Positions 1 to 12,568 of a stretch of 39,980 bases of DNA are shown here, piece by piece; position 1 is the stretch's first letter; each line of letters opens with the position of its first letter. A program made the position numbers and the translations under genes. The notes below the pieces were generated by a model. That model did no database searches, was not told where the DNA came from, and saw nothing but the letters and a program-made list of their open reading frames with translations. The stretch lies in assembly GCF_003334405.1 (NCBI RefSeq), contig NZ_QOWM01000025.1. The stretch is one strand, 5' to 3'. The stretch comes from Escherichia coli (lineage in GTDB: Bacteria > Pseudomonadota > Gammaproteobacteria > Enterobacterales > Enterobacteriaceae).

Positions 1-102
1 GCTGAACTGTTGCTGGAAGACTACAAAGCCTCCCTGAAATATCTCAGCGATCACCCGAAACTGCAGGGTATTGCCCAGCAGAACAGCTTTAAACACACCT
101 GA
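1..102 (+). CDS. gadA: Glutamate decarboxylase, 3' end only (C-terminus ...[33 protein letters not shown], stop TGA 100-102)
   Basis: Frame 1 translation from base 1 gives the characteristic GadA/GadB C-terminus ending FKHT*; assigned gadA rather than gadB because gadX lies immediately downstream. Confidence 0.8.
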
Positions 103-119
103 TAACATAACGTTGTAAA

Positions 120-165
120 AACCGAATGCCCAGCCTTTAAAAAAACAGCTGGGCATTCGGTTGCT
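120..165 (+). terminator. Stem-loop downstream of gadA (15-bp perfect stem aaccgaatgcccagc / gctgggcattcggtt)
   Basis: Perfect inverted repeat read directly; the trailing U-tract is weak (gcttatt), so possibly an attenuating rather than strong terminator, consistent with known gadA-gadX read-through. Confidence 0.45.
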
Positions 166-471
166 TATTAATCGCAATAATATATTGGCTGTCTATTCAT
201 CGTGTTGATAAGATATATGTTATATGAATGTTTATTAAATGTAGCGATTACCTTTAATGTCACGAAAAGGGATTATTTGCTTACTATTAATTTCCCTGCG
301 TTCTTAAACACGTTTTTGTATTATAAATCCAGTCATCCTGCCCGTAGAACATCACACATTATCATCCTGTTCTCCCGCTTCGTTTAAATTTATTTATCAA
401 TCAATTTGACTTAAGAGGGCGGCGTGCTACATTAATAAACAGTAATATGTTTATGTAATATTAAGTCAACT

Positions 472-1296
472 ATGCAATCACTACATGGGAATTGTCTAAT
501 TGCGTATGCAAGACATAAATATATTCTCACCATGGTTAATGGTGAATATCGCTATTTTAATGGCGGTGACCTGGTTTTTGCGGATGCAAGCCAAATTCGA
601 GTAGATAAGTGTGTTGAAAATTTTGTATTCGTGTCAAGGGACACGCTTTCATTATTTCTCCCGATGCTCAAGGAGGAGGCATTAAATCTTCATGCACATA
701 AAAAAGTTTCTTCATTACTCGTTCATCACTGTAGTAGAGATATTCCTGTTTTTCAGGAAGTTGCGCAACTATCGCAGAATAAGAATCTTCGCTATGCAGA
801 AATGCTACGTAAAAGAGCATTAATCTTTGCGTTGTTATCTGTTTTTCTTGAGGATGAGCACTTTATACCGCTGCTTCTGAACGTTTTACAACCGAACATG
901 CGAACACGAGTTTGTACGGTTATCAATAATAATATCGCCCATGAGTGGACACTAGCCCGAATCGCCAGCGAGCTGTTGATGAGTCCAAGTCTGTTAAAGA
1001 AAAAATTGCGCGAAGAAGAGACATCATATTCACAGTTGCTTACTGAGTGTAGAATGCAACGTGCTTTGCAACTTATTGTTATACATGGTTTTTCAATTAA
1101 GCGAGTTGCAGTATCCTGTGGATATCACAGCGTGTCGTATTTCATTTACGTCTTTCGAAATTATTATGGGATGACGCCCACAGAGTATCAGGAGCGATCG
1201 GCGCAGAGATTGTCGAACCGTGACTCGGCGGCAAGTATTGTTGCGCAAGGGAATTTTTACGGCACTGACCGTTCTGCGGAAGGAATAAGATTATAG
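472..1296 (+). CDS. gadX: AraC-family transcriptional activator of the glutamate-dependent acid resistance system (274 aa)
   Basis: 274-aa ORF; C-terminal AraC-type HTH region (…VSCGYHSVSYFIYVFRNYYGMTPTEY); position between gadA and gadW. Confidence 0.9.
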   Translation: MQSLHGNCLIAYARHKYILTMVNGEYRYFNGGDLVFADASQIRVDKCVENFVFVSRDTLSLFLPMLKEEALNLHAHKKVSSLLVHHCSRDIPVFQEVAQLSQNKNLRYAEMLRKRALIFALLSVFLEDEHFIPLLLNVLQPNMRTRVCTVINNNIAHEWTLARIASELLMSPSLLKKKLREEETSYSQLLTECRMQRALQLIVIHGFSIKRVAVSCGYHSVSYFIYVFRNYYGMTPTEYQERSAQRLSNRDSAASIVAQGNFYGTDRSAEGIRL

Positions 1297-1312
1297 AGTT
1301 TTACTCAGACAT

Positions 1313-1418
1313 AAAAAAAACCCGGCATAGGGGACCGGGAAGAGGATAGTCTGCCGTCTCCAGACTAATAAACCGTTATAACACTCCCTGTTGGCACGGG
1401 AAACTTTGTGCTCTCAGT
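1313..1418 (-). ncRNA. gadY: GadY small RNA (about 105 nt), antisense to the gadX 3' end/UTR
   Basis: Minus-strand sequence ACTGAGAGCACAAAGTTTCCCGTGCCAACAGGG…CCCGGTCCCCTATGCCGGGTTTTTTTT matches my memory of GadY, ending in a GC hairpin plus 8 U intrinsic terminator; it sits in the gadX-gadW gap. Confidence 0.75.
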
Positions 1419-1663
1419 AATTTAAATATAACTTTTACTGGAAATAAGATCAGCCATTTTTTTATAAACATAAGCTATACGCTGTGCGAAAATATATTCG
1501 TGCTGCATTTACTTATTATCAATTAACTGTTATGCAAAACTACTTTGTGGATAAATTTTGGTCCTACCAAATCTGGCAGTTTTTGCGCTAAGAAACAGTC
1601 TGGCATCATTTCATTAGTATACTGAAATTGAAATAATCGCAGTATGAAATATAAGGGATAATC

Positions 1664-10328: not shown

Positions 10329-10372
10329 AAAAAGGAGTAGCAAGTTGAGCCATCTTGCTGCTCCTTTTTGCA
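10329..10372 (+). terminator. Intrinsic terminator after hdeB (stem aaaaaggagtagcaag / cttgctgctccttttt, then T-run)
   Basis: Inverted repeat with one mismatch followed by ttttgcattttt; runs into the yhiD start. Confidence 0.55.
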
Positions 10373-10379
10373 TTTTTAT

Positions 10380-11027
10380 ATGACAGCAGAATTTATTATA
10401 CGTCTTATACTCGCGGCAATTGCCTGTGGCGCTATTGGCATGGAAAGGCAAATGCGCGGCAAAGGAGCAGGGTTACGCACACATGTATTAATTGGCATGG
10501 GAAGCGCCCTGTTTATGATTGTTTCGAAATATGGTTTTGCTGACGTGCTGTCTTTAGATCACGTCGGACTCGACCCCAGCCGTATTGCTGCTCAGGTGGT
10601 GACGGGCGTCGGGTTTATCGGTGCAGGTAACATTCTCGTTCGTAACCAAAATATTGTAGGTCTGACGACGGCAGCGGATATCTGGGTGACCGCCGCCATA
10701 GGTATGGTTATTGGCAGCGGTATGTACGAACTGGGTATTTATGGTTCAGTGATGACCTTGTTGGTGCTGGAAGTCTTCCATCAATTAACCTTCCGCCTGA
10801 TGAACAAAAATTACCATTTACAGCTGACATTAGTGAACGGTAATACGGTATCAATGCTCGACTGGTTTAAGCAGCAAAAAATAAAAACTGATTTAGTTTC
10901 GTTGCAGGAAAATGAAGATCATGAAGTGGTCGCCATTGATATCCAGCTTCATGCCACAACGTCGATAGAAGACCTGTTGCGATTATTAAAAGGTATGGCA
11001 GGGGTGAAAGGCGTTTCAATTAGCTAA
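10380..11027 (+). CDS. yhiD: MgtC/SapB-family inner membrane protein (215 aa)
   Basis: Start trimmed to MTAEFIIRLILAAIACGAIGMERQ…; hydrophobic N-terminal domain typical of the MgtC family. Confidence 0.85.
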   Translation: MTAEFIIRLILAAIACGAIGMERQMRGKGAGLRTHVLIGMGSALFMIVSKYGFADVLSLDHVGLDPSRIAAQVVTGVGFIGAGNILVRNQNIVGLTTAADIWVTAAIGMVIGSGMYELGIYGSVMTLLVLEVFHQLTFRLMNKNYHLQLTLVNGNTVSMLDWFKQQKIKTDLVSLQENEDHEVVAIDIQLHATTSIEDLLRLLKGMAGVKGVSIS

Positions 11028-11068
11028 TCTGTGTGGCAGCGTAGCCAGACTCACCGTAAGCCTGAAAT

Positions 11069-11599
11069 TCACACCAGATAATCAATATGCTGATGGCGTA
11101 CCAGCTCATTGATCCGCTTAAGATTGAGGATCATCATGATATTGTGTTTATGGCAGTAGAACGTTTTTAGCGATATTTTCAGTTTCTCCAGAATATCTTC
11201 CGTTGTCATTTGATTCGCAATGCAGCTCAGAACCTGATGTTGCTTGCGCGAAAGTGACACAGCCGCTTCAGGCACAGAGCAGTAACTGCCATTGATGAGT
11301 GCGACAAAATCAATGATAGTGATAGTCCGCGGAACAAAGGTCACCGGCACTTTCCCCAGGCAGCGTTTAATATTAAAGGGGGAGAAAATAATGACATGGA
11401 CAGGTTTTAATCGTTCAATTTGAGTGAGAAAATTAGAATGAAATACATTATTCATTAATGTATCAATAATGACGAAGGCATTCTGATGCAACATTACGTC
11501 GATCTCTTCTTCGTTCTGTATATGAACGACATTACCTTTACTCAGAATGTTTTTCATCGCGGTGAAGAACATCGTATCCCTGGTAATTATAAGAAACAT
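11069..11599 (-). CDS. dctR: LuxR-family transcriptional regulator DctR/YhiF (176 aa)
   Basis: 176-aa ORF with C-terminal LuxR-type HTH; position between yhiD and slp. Confidence 0.85.
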   Translation of the reverse strand: MFLIITRDTMFFTAMKNILSKGNVVHIQNEEEIDVMLHQNAFVIIDTLMNNVFHSNFLTQIERLKPVHVIIFSPFNIKRCLGKVPVTFVPRTITIIDFVALINGSYCSVPEAAVSLSRKQHQVLSCIANQMTTEDILEKLKISLKTFYCHKHNIMMILNLKRINELVRHQHIDYLV

Positions 11600-11754
11600 A
11601 ACCGACTCCTGGTGCGGACATTAACTTTATAATCAGTTTGCCAAAGGTAATTAACAGGACAGGGCTTATAATAATAATAGTTAGCTTACTGTGTATTAAT
11701 TTGATGTAATGCATGATGCAGATGCTGAGAAAGCATCTGCATCTTTCGGTGGTG

Positions 11755-12321
11755 TTATTTGACCAGCTCAGGTGTTACCTGACTCACCGCATTGGTGTAG
11801 TAAGGCGCACCCCAGCCCGGTTCCGGCCAGAATGCACCATAGCCGTAATCCCACAGGTTATAGGTGGTATTAACCACTTCTCTCAAATGCCACACCTGGA
11901 TGCCCTGCATATTCACTTCCAGGAAGTTATACGGGACTTTATTGATAAAGCCAGGTTGTTCACCCTGAATGGTGCCGAGGATGGTAACAAAGTGATTACG
12001 ATAGTTCACTGGATCAAGGAAGCCGCTTTGTCTGGCGAGCAGTCGGCCCTGATAGTTGGCTTCAATATCAGGCTTCGCATAGCTATCCAACGGTAATACA
12101 GCGATTTCTAACAACGTATCCGTTTTGCCATTGATAACGTTGATAACCTTCCCACCAAAGCGCGCTTGTTGACCAACATATAACCCCGGCTGGTTATGAA
12201 CAGCAACAAAACTTTTTTGAATATCAGGTTGGTTATTGCCTTTGATATTTTGCGGAATTGAACTACATGCGGCAAGCAAAAATGAAAGGCTGAGGATGAG
12301 TGCACCTTTTGTCATGTTCAT
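11755..12321 (-). CDS. slp: Starvation-inducible outer membrane lipoprotein Slp (188 aa)
   Basis: ORF track start trimmed to MNMTKGALILSLSFLLAACSS… (lipobox LAAC); length 188 aa. Confidence 0.88.
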   Translation of the reverse strand: MNMTKGALILSLSFLLAACSSIPQNIKGNNQPDIQKSFVAVHNQPGLYVGQQARFGGKVINVINGKTDTLLEIAVLPLDSYAKPDIEANYQGRLLARQSGFLDPVNYRNHFVTILGTIQGEQPGFINKVPYNFLEVNMQGIQVWHLREVVNTTYNLWDYGYGAFWPEPGWGAPYYTNAVSQVTPELVK

Positions 12322-12568
12322 GTTACTATCCTTATCAACAAATATTAAAACCATAATAGATATTTCTTTATAGTTTTCATCTGATTCTGAGGTGATATGC
12401 CTGATAGTAACGTAAACCTGTCTGATGTTTATATCCTTTCTGTTTAGGTGAACTCAGTTAATTTTGGGGCGTGACATGAATATCCATCACCCCATAATAT
12501 AGTGCATTGTTTTAAAAGTACATAAAATCTATTTTTATTCAATGATTATAAAGTGCTAATAATCAATA

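Follow-up and report, generated by a model that had tools for sequence, protein, structure and literature searches.

Origin of the compositional mosaic in the acid fitness island of Escherichia coli

The acid fitness island (AFI) of E. coli carries GC-typical genes next to AT-rich ones, and the question that this locus raises is whether such a mosaic means assembly from parts of different origin, as the initial annotation suggested. We analyzed a 39,980-nt stretch of E. coli DNA (here called the window). Judged by sequence, its positions 1 to 12400 are the canonical AFI minus most of gadA. The first 20,000 bases showed 4 differences from NZ_CP027118.1, bases 20001 to 39980 were identical to NZ_CP042588.1, and each of the 5,426 complete E. 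coli genomes had a match to the AFI. The genes and gene order first proposed for gadX to slp agreed with the coordinates and with the RefSeq comparison (Table 1). The island had also been called complete, but gadA is cut by the start of the window, which holds only its last 102 nt; the gadA promoter and its GAD box lie outside. (L001, which has the full-length gadA, carries an exact GAD box 80 bp upstream of the gene.) Four regulators are present, GadX, GadW, GadE, and DctR, not the three of AraC/LuxR type that had been counted; DctR is also of the LuxR/GerE type, and its E. fergusonii ortholog contains PF00196. An end near 12400 is right in that slp is the conventional end of the island, but the low-GC tract continues to about 14338, and this last segment is the most AT-rich part of the tract.

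Table 1. Features of the AFI and the adjoining segment, in window positions. GC3s percentiles are relative to 125 background E. coli genes.
Feature	Position	Strand	GC	GC3s	CAI	Basis or remark
gadA 3' end	1..102	+				last 33 codons plus stop; annotation offset, L001 gadA 1702-3102
gadA-gadX intergenic region	103..471		0.328			369 bp, 99th percentile of background gaps
gadX, AraC-family activator	472..1296	+	0.410	0.351 (3rd percentile)	0.244 (2nd percentile)	NCBIfam GadX equivalog, 598 bits (cutoff 500)
GadY small RNA, antisense in gadX-gadW spacer	1308..1421	-				Rfam RF00122, 148 bits (gathering 45)
gadW, AraC-family regulator	1664..2392	+	0.418	0.427		RefSeq name GadW; AraC-family matches below YdeO and GadX cutoffs
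mdtF, RND efflux permease	2755..5868	-	0.530	0.597 (78th percentile)		clade distinct from AcrB, 70.8% identity to AcrB
GC-typical segment (mdtF, mdtE, almost whole mdtE-gadE gap)	2822..7362		0.533			binary GC segmentation
mdtE, periplasmic adaptor of pump	5893..7050	-	0.546	0.623 (89th percentile)		NCBIfam MdtE equivalog, 880 bits (cutoff 738); shorter in RefSeq strain 26561, start at 7002
mdtE-gadE gap, gadE 3' UTR	7051..7388		0.470			338 bp
ES205 sRNA match in gadE 3' UTR	7200..7271	-				Rfam RF02754, 105 bits (gathering 86)
gadE, LuxR/GerE-type central activator	7389..7916	-	0.330	0.369 (2nd-3rd percentile)		PF00196 in its homologs
gadE promoter/sensory-integration region	7917..8714		0.361			798 bp
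hdeD, inner-membrane acid-resistance protein	8715..9287	-	0.466	0.525 (background median)		NCBIfam HdeD, 303 bits (cutoff 189)
hdeA, periplasmic acid-activated chaperone	9542..9874	+		0.340 (2nd-3rd percentile)	0.619 (95th percentile)	
hdeB, periplasmic chaperone	9990..10316	+		0.356 (2nd-3rd percentile)	0.499	
yhiD, MgtC/SapB-family membrane protein	10380..11027	+				NCBIfam, 402 bits (cutoff 214)
dctR (yhiF), LuxR/GerE-type regulator	11069..11599	-	0.397			weak LuxR-type HTH matches
slp, outer-membrane lipoprotein, conventional island end	11755..12321	-				TIGR00752 Slp, 301 bits
AT-rich segment	12307..14338		0.329			outside AFI as defined; continues low-GC tract
yhiS-like ORF	12569-13792	-				407 aa; inside segment 12307-14338

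The island is low in GC overall, as had been claimed: about 0.45 across 1 to 12400 versus 0.50 to 0.53 in the bulk of the background, and about 0.40 without the mdtEF segment (arithmetic on the segmentation segments). Neither GC nor codon usage is uniform over this range. That mdtEF and the gadE-mdtE gap are richer in GC than the regulator and chaperone genes was confirmed by GC, by GC3s, and by unsupervised, binary segmentation on GC. The boundaries of the GC-typical segment had log-likelihood ratios of 122 and 142 versus a null 99th percentile of 15.4, and the GC step and the stop codon of gadE are 26 bp apart. The GC3s values of gadX, gadE, hdeA, and hdeB are in the lowest 3% of background E. 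coli genes. Full-length gadA from L001 is itself GC-typical (GC, 0.540; GC3s, 0.598), and the island thus has two GC-typical pieces, gadA and the mdtEF segment, not one.

The intergenic regions are indeed unusually long and AT rich. Their median length is 254 bp versus 48 bp for 201 background gaps (Mann-Whitney P = 4.6e-4), and the noncoding fraction is 23.6% versus 8.9%. Five AFI gaps reach or pass the 98th percentile of the background, and the gap between gadE and hdeD, for which the initial annotation gave the exact length, exceeds the background maximum of 545 bp. The long gaps have GC values of 0.33 to 0.36, which the mdtE-gadE gap exceeds. Because the GC contrast is present at synonymous sites and in spacers, it is not due to amino acid content. 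The gadA terminator hairpin (about 121 to 165) lies in the gadA-gadX spacer, as does the promoter region of gadX; the 3' end of GadY is consistent with a terminator-like hairpin at 1339-1321(-). The "unusually long 798 bp gadE promoter" has already been published, along with its four start sites and its repression by H-NS, as has the gadE-mdtEF operon, formed by read-through from the gadE promoter (PMC3708157). The ES205 match has its 3' end at a hairpin plus T-run; from its position, it is most likely GadF, an sRNA processed from the gadE 3' UTR (PMC5145812).

Islands homologous to the AFI were found in five other genera, Citrobacter, Kluyvera, Yokenella, Kosakonia, and Pluralibacter. The order in Pluralibacter is adiA-AraC-gadE'-RND-hdeD-hdeA-AraC-adiC, and in Kluyvera, Yokenella, and Kosakonia it is adiA-gadE'-(hdeD)-hdeA-adiY-adiC; the Kluyvera AdiA and AdiC proteins scored above the NCBIfam cutoffs. 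Citrobacter has two clusters. C1 (C. braakii, C. amalonaticus, and the C. freundii group) is urease linked, with the order ydgH-slp-gadE'-crcB-mdtE'F'-hdeD-hdeA-hdeB-amt-ureABCEFGD-UT-yhiD'-dctR'-AraC, and we found no description of it in the searchable literature. It has all of the AFI families except gadA and gadXW, in place of which are urease, a urea transporter, an Amt-family transporter gene, and crcB, and its proteins are 44 to 77% identical to those of E. coli. Its block hdeD(-) hdeA hdeB yhiD dctR(-) is collinear with that of E. coli once urease is removed; the gadE-mdtEF unit is collinear too, but its orientation with respect to the hde block is reversed, and slp lies at the opposite end. 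C2 is slp-mdtEF-hdeB'-hdeD'-yfdX-evgSA, without gadE, hdeA, yhiD, and dctR. In C2, mdtEF and evgSA are physically linked; EvgA reportedly induces mdtEF in E. coli (Nishino and Yamaguchi 2002). The AFI itself is already known, but the family of AFI-like islands across genera may be new.

We believe that the AFI is probably a member of an old family of Enterobacteriaceae islands with the pump in its core rather than imported later. The conserved core would consist of HdeD, HdeA/B, and a regulator resembling GadE, in most cases accompanied by Slp, YhiD, DctR, and a pump of the MdtEF type. To this, acid-countering modules would have been added: gadA with gadXW in Escherichia, urease in Citrobacter, and adiA-adiY-adiC in Kluyvera, Yokenella, Kosakonia, and Pluralibacter, plus extras such as chu. 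The large enzyme and transporter genes (mdtEF, gadA, adiA, and adiC) would have drifted to the synonymous composition of the host, while the long spacers and the small genes for regulators and chaperones stayed AT rich, plausibly because H-NS silencing and dense regulation depend on AT. H-NS binds across the island and at PgadE (PMC3708157; bioRxiv 10.64898/2026.02.10.705075), and selection for this binding plausibly maintains the AT-richness; recurrent passage from one host to another is a further process that could maintain it. Such unequal drift is a more likely source of the GC contrast than a separate origin of the pump. The idea of assembly from parts of different origin is thus supported in the broad sense, since the chu, gadA-gadXW, urease, and adiAYC modules were gained or lost between islands, but is not supported for mdtEF: Citrobacter and Pluralibacter likewise have gadE' and hdeD next to a pump of the MdtF type, the relationships of the three do not conflict, and within Escherichia the dS of mdtEF, gadE, hdeD, and hdeB matches that of the flanking core gene ccp. 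The pump has a GC3s of 0.60 in E. coli and 0.58 in E. fergusonii and reaches 0.825 in Pluralibacter, whereas that of gadE' is 0.37 to 0.54 in every host and 0.467 in Pluralibacter, so the contrast follows gene class and host, not separate arrival. In the adi clusters, GC3s is 0.58 to 0.71 for adiA and adiC versus 0.41 to 0.51 for adiY and 0.39 to 0.53 for hdeA. The C1 island is AT rich relative to its own flanks, and the contrast within it is weak, a point against unequal drift: its pump is AT rich as well (GC3s, 0.45 to 0.47), while the C2 pump is GC typical.

Relationships were examined with neighbor-joining trees of few taxa. With AcrB as the outgroup, the MdtF tree was ((Escherichia,C2)100,(Pluralibacter,C1)92). 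In the HdeD and GadE trees, for which the outgroups are very distant, Escherichia fell outside C1 plus the adi-type clusters with branch support of only 15 to 66%. Pump, GadE, and HdeD would all place Escherichia outside (C1, Pluralibacter), or at the least give no contradictory placement. The ratios of AFI-C1 to C1-Pluralibacter divergence (arithmetic on identity matrices) were 1.05 for MdtF, 1.27 for HdeD, and 1.2 for GadE; thus, the split of the pump is not older than that of GadE or HdeD.

A shared core was found in other enterobacteria, but C2 remains incongruent with it. Outside Escherichia, the nearest relatives of E. coli Slp, MdtE, and MdtF are those of C2, with identities of 77 to 80%, 74 to 76%, and 87%, versus 50 to 52%, 61 to 63%, and 77% for C1. 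Its HdeD and HdeB are only 24 to 34% identical to all others; to those of E. coli, HdeD' is 27% identical and HdeB' 22 to 25% globally (about 32% by local BLAST), whereas the C1 proteins are 53 to 54% and 62 to 63% identical. Bootstrap values were 100 for Escherichia plus C2 with Slp, MdtE, and MdtF and 100 for Escherichia plus C1 with HdeB. Because slp and mdtEF of E. coli are nearest to C2, whose hde genes are far removed from the others, one or more of the three clusters is chimeric, possibly the AFI itself. Its mdtEF and slp would then differ in origin from gadE and the hde genes, a C2-like slp-mdtEF unit having been split by, or joined with, an AT-rich dctR-yhiD-hdeBA-hdeD-gadE block from a C1- or adi-type island. 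Indeed, slp neighbors mdtE in C2 at a distance of 277 bp, and it is exactly the low-GC block that lies between them in E. coli, with the GC step just beyond gadE; C2 is a discrete 11.8-kb unit that is 96% identical in two unrelated contexts, so such units clearly move. We nevertheless consider a chimeric AFI rather unlikely. C1 already has the pump and slp in the E. coli relative order (slp ... gadE-mdtEF), plus yhiD and dctR, so the AFI and C1 look homologous as wholes; relative to GadE and HdeD, the pump shows no excess divergence. No breakpoint was found inside MdtE, MdtF, or Slp, and the spacers flanking the block had no detectable homology to the C2 slp-mdtE spacer. The odd genes could equally be the C2 hde pair, as distant paralogs or by a secondary fusion.

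At the other extreme, the mosaic might carry no historical signal, reflecting nothing but constraints on proteins (large enzymes and membrane proteins versus small basic regulators) and on expression (the choice of codons in genes with high expression). The gadE gene is AT rich at the first two codon positions too (GC1, 0.368; GC2, 0.230), CAI is high in hdeA (0.62), hdeB (0.50), and gadA (0.59) despite opposite GC3, and the same gene classes are AT rich or GC typical in every genus. But the synonymous contrast is equally strong (GC3s of 0.60 versus 0.34 to 0.37) and the spacers follow it, hdeD encodes a membrane protein yet is intermediate in composition, and the AT-rich C1 pump means that protein class alone does not set composition; constraint by itself is thus quite improbable. 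Least probable is a single recent import en bloc from a low-GC donor, still unameliorated, as in a classical genomic island. The complete arrangement is restricted to Escherichia, the literature presents the AFI as an acquired gene cluster whose GC deviates (PMC3708157), and xenoGI handled slp-gadA as one insertion (PMC5799925). However, GC segmentation and dS values contradict it. Relative to E. albertii, dS is 0.70 for mdtF, 0.83 for mdtE, 0.54 for gadE, 0.85 for hdeD, and 0.73 for hdeB, matching the 0.68 of the flanking core gene ccp, so the AFI is older than the E. coli-E. albertii split. Its presence throughout the complete E. coli genomes and the homologous islands in other genera also argue against it, as does the lack of any tRNA in the window and of any annotated integrase or transposase within 1 to 14400.

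From established knowledge and the papers cited, in growing cells at neutral pH H-NS would bind and silence the regulator genes and promoters that are AT rich. Anaerobiosis, acid, or entry into stationary phase would relieve this via RpoS, EvgAS-YdeO, ArcA, GadX/GadW (with GadY), and GadE, acting on the gadE promoter. GadE would then activate gadA, hdeD, hdeAB-yhiD, and, by read-through, the gadE-mdtEF operon, giving proton consumption, periplasmic chaperoning, and efflux.

The AFI of E. coli K-12, which reportedly runs from slp to gadA (Hommais et al. 2004; Tramonti et al. 2008; Mates et al. 2007), has the same genes, order, orientation, and spacers as the window, including the long gadE promoter, GadY, and the sRNA of the gadE 3' UTR; the two differ in the truncated gadA. 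The yhiS-like ORF beside slp is intact in the window, whereas in K-12 we take it to be disrupted by IS5, and the slp-side flank varies in Escherichia, with or without ars and yhiS. The O-island 140-type AFI (E. coli O157:H7, E. albertii, and S. dysenteriae) has the same backbone but with chu heme genes beside yhiD, as described (PMC5799925), where in the window yhiD and dctR are separated by only 41 bp; in L008, ChuT/W/X/U/V-type genes were found next to yhiD. In E. fergusonii, an AFI-like island adjoins uxuAB at a nonsyntenic site. Its order, slp-dctR-yhiD-hdeBA-hdeD-gadE-mdtEF-gadW, and its GC contrast are those of the window, but gadA is missing and gadX is replaced by another AraC gene (49% identical to GadX); its nucleotide identity to E. 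coli is 59 to 82%, versus 98% for the neighboring uxuBA. Salmonella SPI-2, a textbook mosaic, is likewise one named island with components of different phyletic ages (PMC5799925). The parts of SPI-2, however, demonstrably differ in their distribution among Salmonella lineages, whereas the compositionally distinct pump of the AFI has the same distribution as its AT-rich neighbors.

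The first 20 kb of the window had a match in all 5,426 complete E. coli genomes and differed from NZ_CP027118.1 at 4 single bases; the second half was 100% identical to NZ_CP042588.1. RefSeq gene coordinates were transferred to the window with a reading-frame check. The genes and their order (slp-dctR-yhiD-hdeB-hdeA-hdeD-gadE-mdtE-mdtF-gadW-gadX-gadA) are those of the acid fitness island (AFI), which according to the literature confers acid resistance, and the island is at the expected site, from the ars/gor side to gadA-ccp(yhjA): ccp-gadA ... slp-(yhiS-like)-arsCBR-dinQ-gorA. 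The initial annotation called the island complete, but the window starts within gadA and includes only its last 33 codons (102 nt). There are also four AraC/LuxR-type regulators instead of the three counted at first: GadX and GadW are of the AraC type, and GadE and DctR are of the LuxR/GerE type. GadX, MdtE, HdeD, HdeA, HdeB, YhiD, and Slp scored above the curated NCBIfam equivalog cutoffs (for MdtE, 880 bits versus a cutoff of 738), and MdtF shared 99% identity with the cluster named MdtF. AcrB (70.8% identical to MdtF) and AcrA (53.5% identical to MdtE) both fell outside the MdtEF clade; thus, the pump is an MdtEF-type RND pump distinct from AcrAB. AFI does not look like a classical mobile genomic island: there was no tRNA gene in the window, no integrase or transposase gene was annotated within positions 1 to 14400, and the composition of the island was not uniformly foreign.

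We compared AFI with a background of 125 annotated genes, drawn from three 50-kb regions of this strain's genome (GC content at synonymous third positions [GC3s], 0.527 ± 0.082), and calculated the codon adaptation index (CAI) with weights built from 30 of the strain's genes for ribosomal proteins and elongation factors. GC content was below the genome average for AFI overall (∼0.45) and for 9 of its 12 genes; mdtE, mdtF, and gadA were genome typical. Codon adaptation was equally uneven. CAI was high in hdeA (0.62), gadA (0.59), and hdeB (0.50), average in mdtEF, and among the worst in gadX (0.24) and gadW (0.29). Likelihood-ratio segmentation of the whole window gave boundary statistics of 32 to 142 versus a null 99th percentile of 15. 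As had been noticed by eye, mdtEF and the mdtE-gadE gap are GC-richer than their neighbors: they form one segment, which contains essentially all of the 338-bp gap (GC, 0.470), and the stop codon of gadE is 26 bp from the GC step. The intergenic regions are indeed long, with a median of 254 bp versus 48 bp in 201 background gaps (Mann-Whitney p = 4.6e-4) and a noncoding fraction of 23.6% versus 8.9%. The 798 bp given for the region upstream of gadE was exact, and the background maximum was 545 bp. Rather than being uniform, GC content across positions 1 to 12400 broke into four compositional segments, and GC3s and CAI were uneven among the genes. The contrast within the proposed low-GC mosaic is therefore real, but the AT-rich tract runs on to ∼14.3 kb, and gadA is GC typical like the pump genes.

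Positions and composition of features in the window, with synonymous divergence (dS) from E. albertii. Percentiles refer to the background genes; gadW, yhiD, dctR, and slp are given their common GC3s range.
Feature	Position	Strand	GC	GC3s	dS
Segment with gadA end, gadX, gadW	1-2821		0.401		
Segment with mdtF, mdtE, mdtE-gadE gap	2822-7362		0.533		
Segment with gadE and most of its promoter	7363-8619		0.339		
Segment from hdeD to slp	8620-12306		0.429		
Segment with yhiS-like ORF and flanks (most AT-rich piece)	12307-14338		0.329		
gadA, last 102 nt only (GC3s of full gene, from neighboring sequence L001)	1-102	+		0.598 (78th percentile)	0.52
gadX	472-1296	+		0.351 (2nd-3rd percentile)	
GadY sRNA	1308-1421	-			
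gadW	1664-2392	+		0.43-0.48 (intermediate)	
mdtF	2755-5868	-		0.597 (78th percentile)	0.70
mdtE	5893-7050	-		0.623 (89th percentile)	0.83
92-aa hypothetical protein	7110-7388	+			
ES205 sRNA match	7200-7271	-			
gadE	7389-7916	-		0.369 (2nd-3rd percentile)	0.54
hdeD	8715-9287	-		0.525 (median)	0.85
hdeA	9542-9874	+		0.340 (2nd-3rd percentile)	
hdeB	9990-10316	+		0.356 (2nd-3rd percentile)	0.73
yhiD	10380-11027	+		0.43-0.48 (intermediate)	
dctR	11069-11599	-		0.43-0.48 (intermediate)	
slp	11755-12321	-		0.43-0.48 (intermediate)	
yhiS-like ORF	12569-13792	-	0.339	0.282	
arsB	14859-16148	-			
arsB, longest remaining ORF	14859-16031	-			
AgrB antisense RNA	16706-17020	-			
AgrB antisense RNA	17295-17378	+			
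ES036 (CssrF) sRNA match	25798-25838	-			
Second strongly AT-rich block	30181-34337		0.356		
YhiJ/YhiL-family paralogue	30625-32232			0.27-0.30	
YhiJ/YhiL-family paralogue	32494-34116			0.27-0.30	
yhhI (ISEc1 transposase), cut by window end	39570-39980	-			
ccp (flanking core gene)					0.68

No gene in the window is more AT-rich than the yhiS-like ORF, which is intact (407 aa) and had no NCBIfam match. Both it and ars are missing in some Escherichia species, in which gorA abuts slp (L007 and L011). In arsB, a TGG-to-TAG nonsense mutation relative to NZ_CP027118.1 is present at codon 17 (position 16099); the longest remaining ORF has a GTG restart and encodes 390 aa. This strain probably has an arsenite pump that either does not work or lacks its N terminus. 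The two AgrB antisense RNAs (Rfam, 106 to 108 bits) adjoin the dinQ type I toxin gene, and together they are the known agrAB-dinQ module. The ES036 match lies between uspB and pitA and, at 42 bits, is barely over the Rfam gathering score of 37.6. The YhiJ/YhiL-family paralogues are in tandem, and their block looks like another H-NS-type island. The yhhI transposase gene belongs to the ISAs1 family, and a matching compositional step was found at position 39351.

Two sRNAs were found in AFI (Rfam): GadY, at 148 bits, and a match to ES205, at 105 bits, within the 3′ untranslated region (UTR) of gadE. From its position, we infer that the latter is the published GadF sRNA (PMC5145812). The 92-aa hypothetical protein annotated by RefSeq is antisense to the gadE 3′ UTR and ES205/GadF, has no family match, and is probably an annotation artifact. 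In line with GadE-dependent control of AFI, there is one exact 20-nt match to the GAD box consensus 80 bp upstream of gadA, outside the window (L001 1603-1622); at ≤3 mismatches, there was none within the window. Scans of the window gave no significant enrichment of consensus promoters (39 versus 31.4±5.8) or of terminators (21 versus 14.0±3.8), and the GadY terminator was the one feature taken from the terminator scan. In the literature, the “unusually long 798 bp gadE promoter” is an H-NS-repressed promoter that drives gadE-mdtEF (PMC3708157), and H-NS occupancy of AFI and its derepression in hns mutants have also been reported (PMC3708157; summarized in bioRxiv 10.64898/2026.02.10.705075). 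AFI has the AT richness of H-NS-silenced loci, with a GC content of 0.29 to 0.36 in the long spacers and 0.339 in gadE plus its promoter.

When one genome per species was scanned with GadE, this arrangement was present in E. coli lineages, E. whittamii, E. albertii, and two further Escherichia species, and an MdtF look-up added E. fergusonii, in which the island is at a different chromosomal site. Among the loci found, the full arrangement was confined to Escherichia species, with partial homologous islands in Citrobacter, Pluralibacter, Kluyvera, Yokenella, and Kosakonia. Two further contigs with AFI sequence, a frameshift-ridden, E. coli-like 8.6-kb contig labeled Flavobacterium paronense (L012) and a 466-bp contig labeled Streptomyces sp. 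DH24 (L013), were discarded; the AFI sequence in them is almost certainly contamination. Values of dS relative to E. albertii for AFI genes, set against that for the ccp flank (Table), indicate that its GC-rich and AT-rich portions have descended together from the E. albertii split, at the latest, onward. Notably, gadX and gadW are hyperdivergent among Escherichia (dS from 1.1 to saturated; 75 to 83% amino acid identity versus 97 to 99% for their neighbors). In E. coli E69 (L008), an albertii-like gadX (76%) is beside a 99% gadA, which suggests that old allele classes have been swapped by recombination.

The E. fergusonii island (L020 3355-15615) had 59 to 82% DNA identity to that of E. coli, whereas the adjoining uxuBA (L020 115-2846) was 98% identical. 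This difference points either to a recent exchange of the flank with E. coli or to a much deeper origin of the island. It is in keeping with an independent acquisition, as the xenoGI authors proposed (PMC5799925). The island is also modular within the genus: Chu-type heme genes are beside yhiD in L008, gadA is missing in E. fergusonii, and ars and yhiS are present in the slp flank of some loci and absent from that of others.

In protein searches, MdtF relatives were 92 to 93% identical in E. fergusonii and 85 to 87% identical in Citrobacter; GadE relatives dropped from 78% straight to ∼50% (Citrobacter, Pluralibacter, Kluyvera, Yokenella, and Kosakonia). One Citrobacter island, C1, has every AFI family except gadA/gadXW, in the order ydgH-slp-gadE′-crcB-mdtE′-mdtF′-hdeD(-)-hdeA-hdeB-amt-ureABCEFGD-urea transporter-yhiD′-dctR′(-)-AraC. 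It is ∼22 kb long, with an Amt-family transporter gene (amt) and a complete urease cluster; in L015, genes of a P4-like satellite phage (Psu, Ogr/Delta, AlpA, and primase) lie directly upstream. After removal of urease, hdeD(-) hdeA hdeB yhiD dctR(-) is collinear with E. coli, and the gadE-mdtEF unit is whole but inverted relative to the hde block. AFI and C1 could be converted into each other by one inverted transposition or by two inversions, if crcB was also lost and urease was exchanged for the gad module.

A second Citrobacter island, C2, has the order slp-mdtE-mdtF-hdeB′(-)-hdeD′(-)-yfdX-evgS(-)-evgA(-), with EvgA and YfdX above their cutoffs; one of the assemblies, of C. amalonaticus, also has C1. 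C2 joins the pump physically to EvgAS, which is a known upstream regulator of the pump in E. coli. The 11.8-kb C2 sequences of two contigs (L021 7818-19599 and L022 7820-19597) were 96.1% identical, but their flanks did not align at all; thus, C2 appears to have been recently mobile among Citrobacter. In other genera, the core is embedded in adi-type clusters, with AdiA and AdiC of Kluyvera above NCBIfam cutoffs. Kluyvera and Yokenella have adiA-gadE′-hdeD-hdeA-adiY-adiC without a pump, and Kosakonia has gadE′-hdeA in the adi cluster without hdeD or a pump. Pluralibacter has the gadE′-hdeD-hdeA trio in an adi-type cluster, with an AraC gene before gadE′ and, between gadE′ and hdeD, an MdtF-type permease without an adaptor gene.

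Neighbor-joining trees (100 bootstraps) gave different partners for different AFI genes. The MdtF tree, with AcrB as the outgroup, was ((Escherichia,C2)100,(Pluralibacter,C1)92), and in the MdtE and Slp trees Escherichia also joined C2 with a bootstrap value of 100. In the HdeB tree, Escherichia joined C1 (100), and the HdeD and HdeB of C2 were far outside all others (22 to 34% identity). In the HdeD and GadE trees, Escherichia was outside C1 and the adi-type clusters, with weak support. Because Slp and the pump group AFI with C2 and Hde groups AFI with C1, at least one of the three islands is chimeric. We think that C2 is the derived cluster, since C1 has the full gene set and C2 lacks gadE, hdeA, yhiD, and dctR; C2 would be an AFI-lineage slp-mdtEF piece, with gadE lost, fused to an evgAS-yfdX-hde′ cluster. 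The reverse is possible. Sliding-window identities to C1 and C2 gave no breakpoint inside MdtE, MdtF, or Slp; E. coli was C2-like throughout, with ties only in very conserved windows. No insertion junction was found when the slp-dctR and gadE-mdtE spacers of E. coli and E. fergusonii were compared with the slp-mdtE spacer of C2 (no score above shuffles, z ≤ 1.8), and the E. coli and E. fergusonii spacers themselves barely align. The argument that the C2 hde genes evolve slowly was dropped because the two C2 copies are too alike to give rate information. We also dropped the C2 result as proof that AFI is the chimera, because C1 reaches yhiD′-dctR′-AraC and because the pump, GadE, and HdeD do not conflict across AFI, C1, and Pluralibacter. 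In all three of these families, C1 and Pluralibacter are mutually nearest. The ratio of the AFI-C1 to the C1-Pluralibacter distance, calculated from the matrices, was 1.05 for the pump, 1.27 for HdeD, and 1.2 for GadE; a deeper separate lineage for the E. coli pump should have given the opposite.

The GC contrast recurs wherever the core occurs and follows gene class and host. GC3s of the pump permease was 0.60 in E. coli, 0.58 in both E. fergusonii and C2, 0.825 in Pluralibacter (host flanks, 0.70 to 0.78), and 0.45 to 0.47 in C1. The corresponding gadE′ values were 0.37 in E. coli, 0.40 in E. fergusonii, 0.47 in Pluralibacter, and 0.36 to 0.42 in C1 (C2 has no gadE′), with a range of 0.36 to 0.54 over all hosts. 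Similarly, adiA and adiC are host typical (0.58 to 0.71), and the adjoining adiY and hdeA are at 0.39 to 0.53. With a protein difference of ∼50% among GadE homologues, their separation is far too old for AT richness simply to persist from an import in the recent past. Amino acid content alone does not explain the contrast either, because the effect is present at synonymous sites and in spacers. The best explanation is unequal amelioration, in which large enzyme and transporter genes would drift toward host composition while regulator and chaperone genes and long spacers would be held AT rich. Such retention fits parts that are densely regulated and, according to the literature, bound by H-NS, which may provide the selective link; C1, which is AT rich throughout, may represent a less ameliorated state. 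Thus, of the initial suggestion that the island was assembled from parts of different origin, the modularity stands, but the GC step around mdtEF is poor evidence that the pump came from elsewhere. As a caution, a separate origin should not be read from a GC step alone: here the GC-typical pump stayed linked to, and diverged alongside, its AT-rich neighbors in several genera.

We tentatively propose, with slightly less than even confidence, that AFI belongs to a previously undescribed family of “acid-stress islands” in Enterobacteriaceae, all of them modular. The conserved, persistently AT-rich core of the family would be a GadE-like regulator, HdeD, and HdeA/B, with Slp, YhiD, DctR, and an MdtEF-type pump. 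The interchangeable modules that counter acid would be glutamate decarboxylase in Escherichia, urease in Citrobacter, and arginine decarboxylase plus antiporter in Kluyvera, Yokenella, Kosakonia, and Pluralibacter. Pump and enzyme genes would equilibrate to host GC, and regulators and chaperones would be kept AT rich, plausibly for H-NS control. C2 would be a related unit that still moves among Citrobacter.

In the literature searched, which was covered in part and so does not imply novelty, we found no description of the urease-linked, adi-embedded, or evgAS-linked clusters. Brameyer et al. noted GadE homologues in C. freundii and K. ascorbata without their context (PMC8989999), and AFI evolution is said to have “likely involved multiple insertion events” (PMC5799925). 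Earlier publications already cover the island, including the low GC content, H-NS silencing, the 798-bp promoter, GadY, and GadF, as well as the chu insertion, the odd E. fergusonii copy, and gadA/gadB gene conversion. The AFI finding as first written therefore adds nothing new to what is a textbook island with published GC content, silencing, and promoter; the comparative family of AFI-like islands may be a modest new lead. In other enterobacteria, the linkage of GadE-HdeD-HdeA(B) cores with urease or an arginine system suggests that GadE-like regulators and Hde chaperones are a portable acid-stress chassis for various proton-handling modules. This idea could guide acid tolerance experiments in Citrobacter, Kluyvera, and their relatives, and it is relevant to why acid regulators control mdtEF at all.
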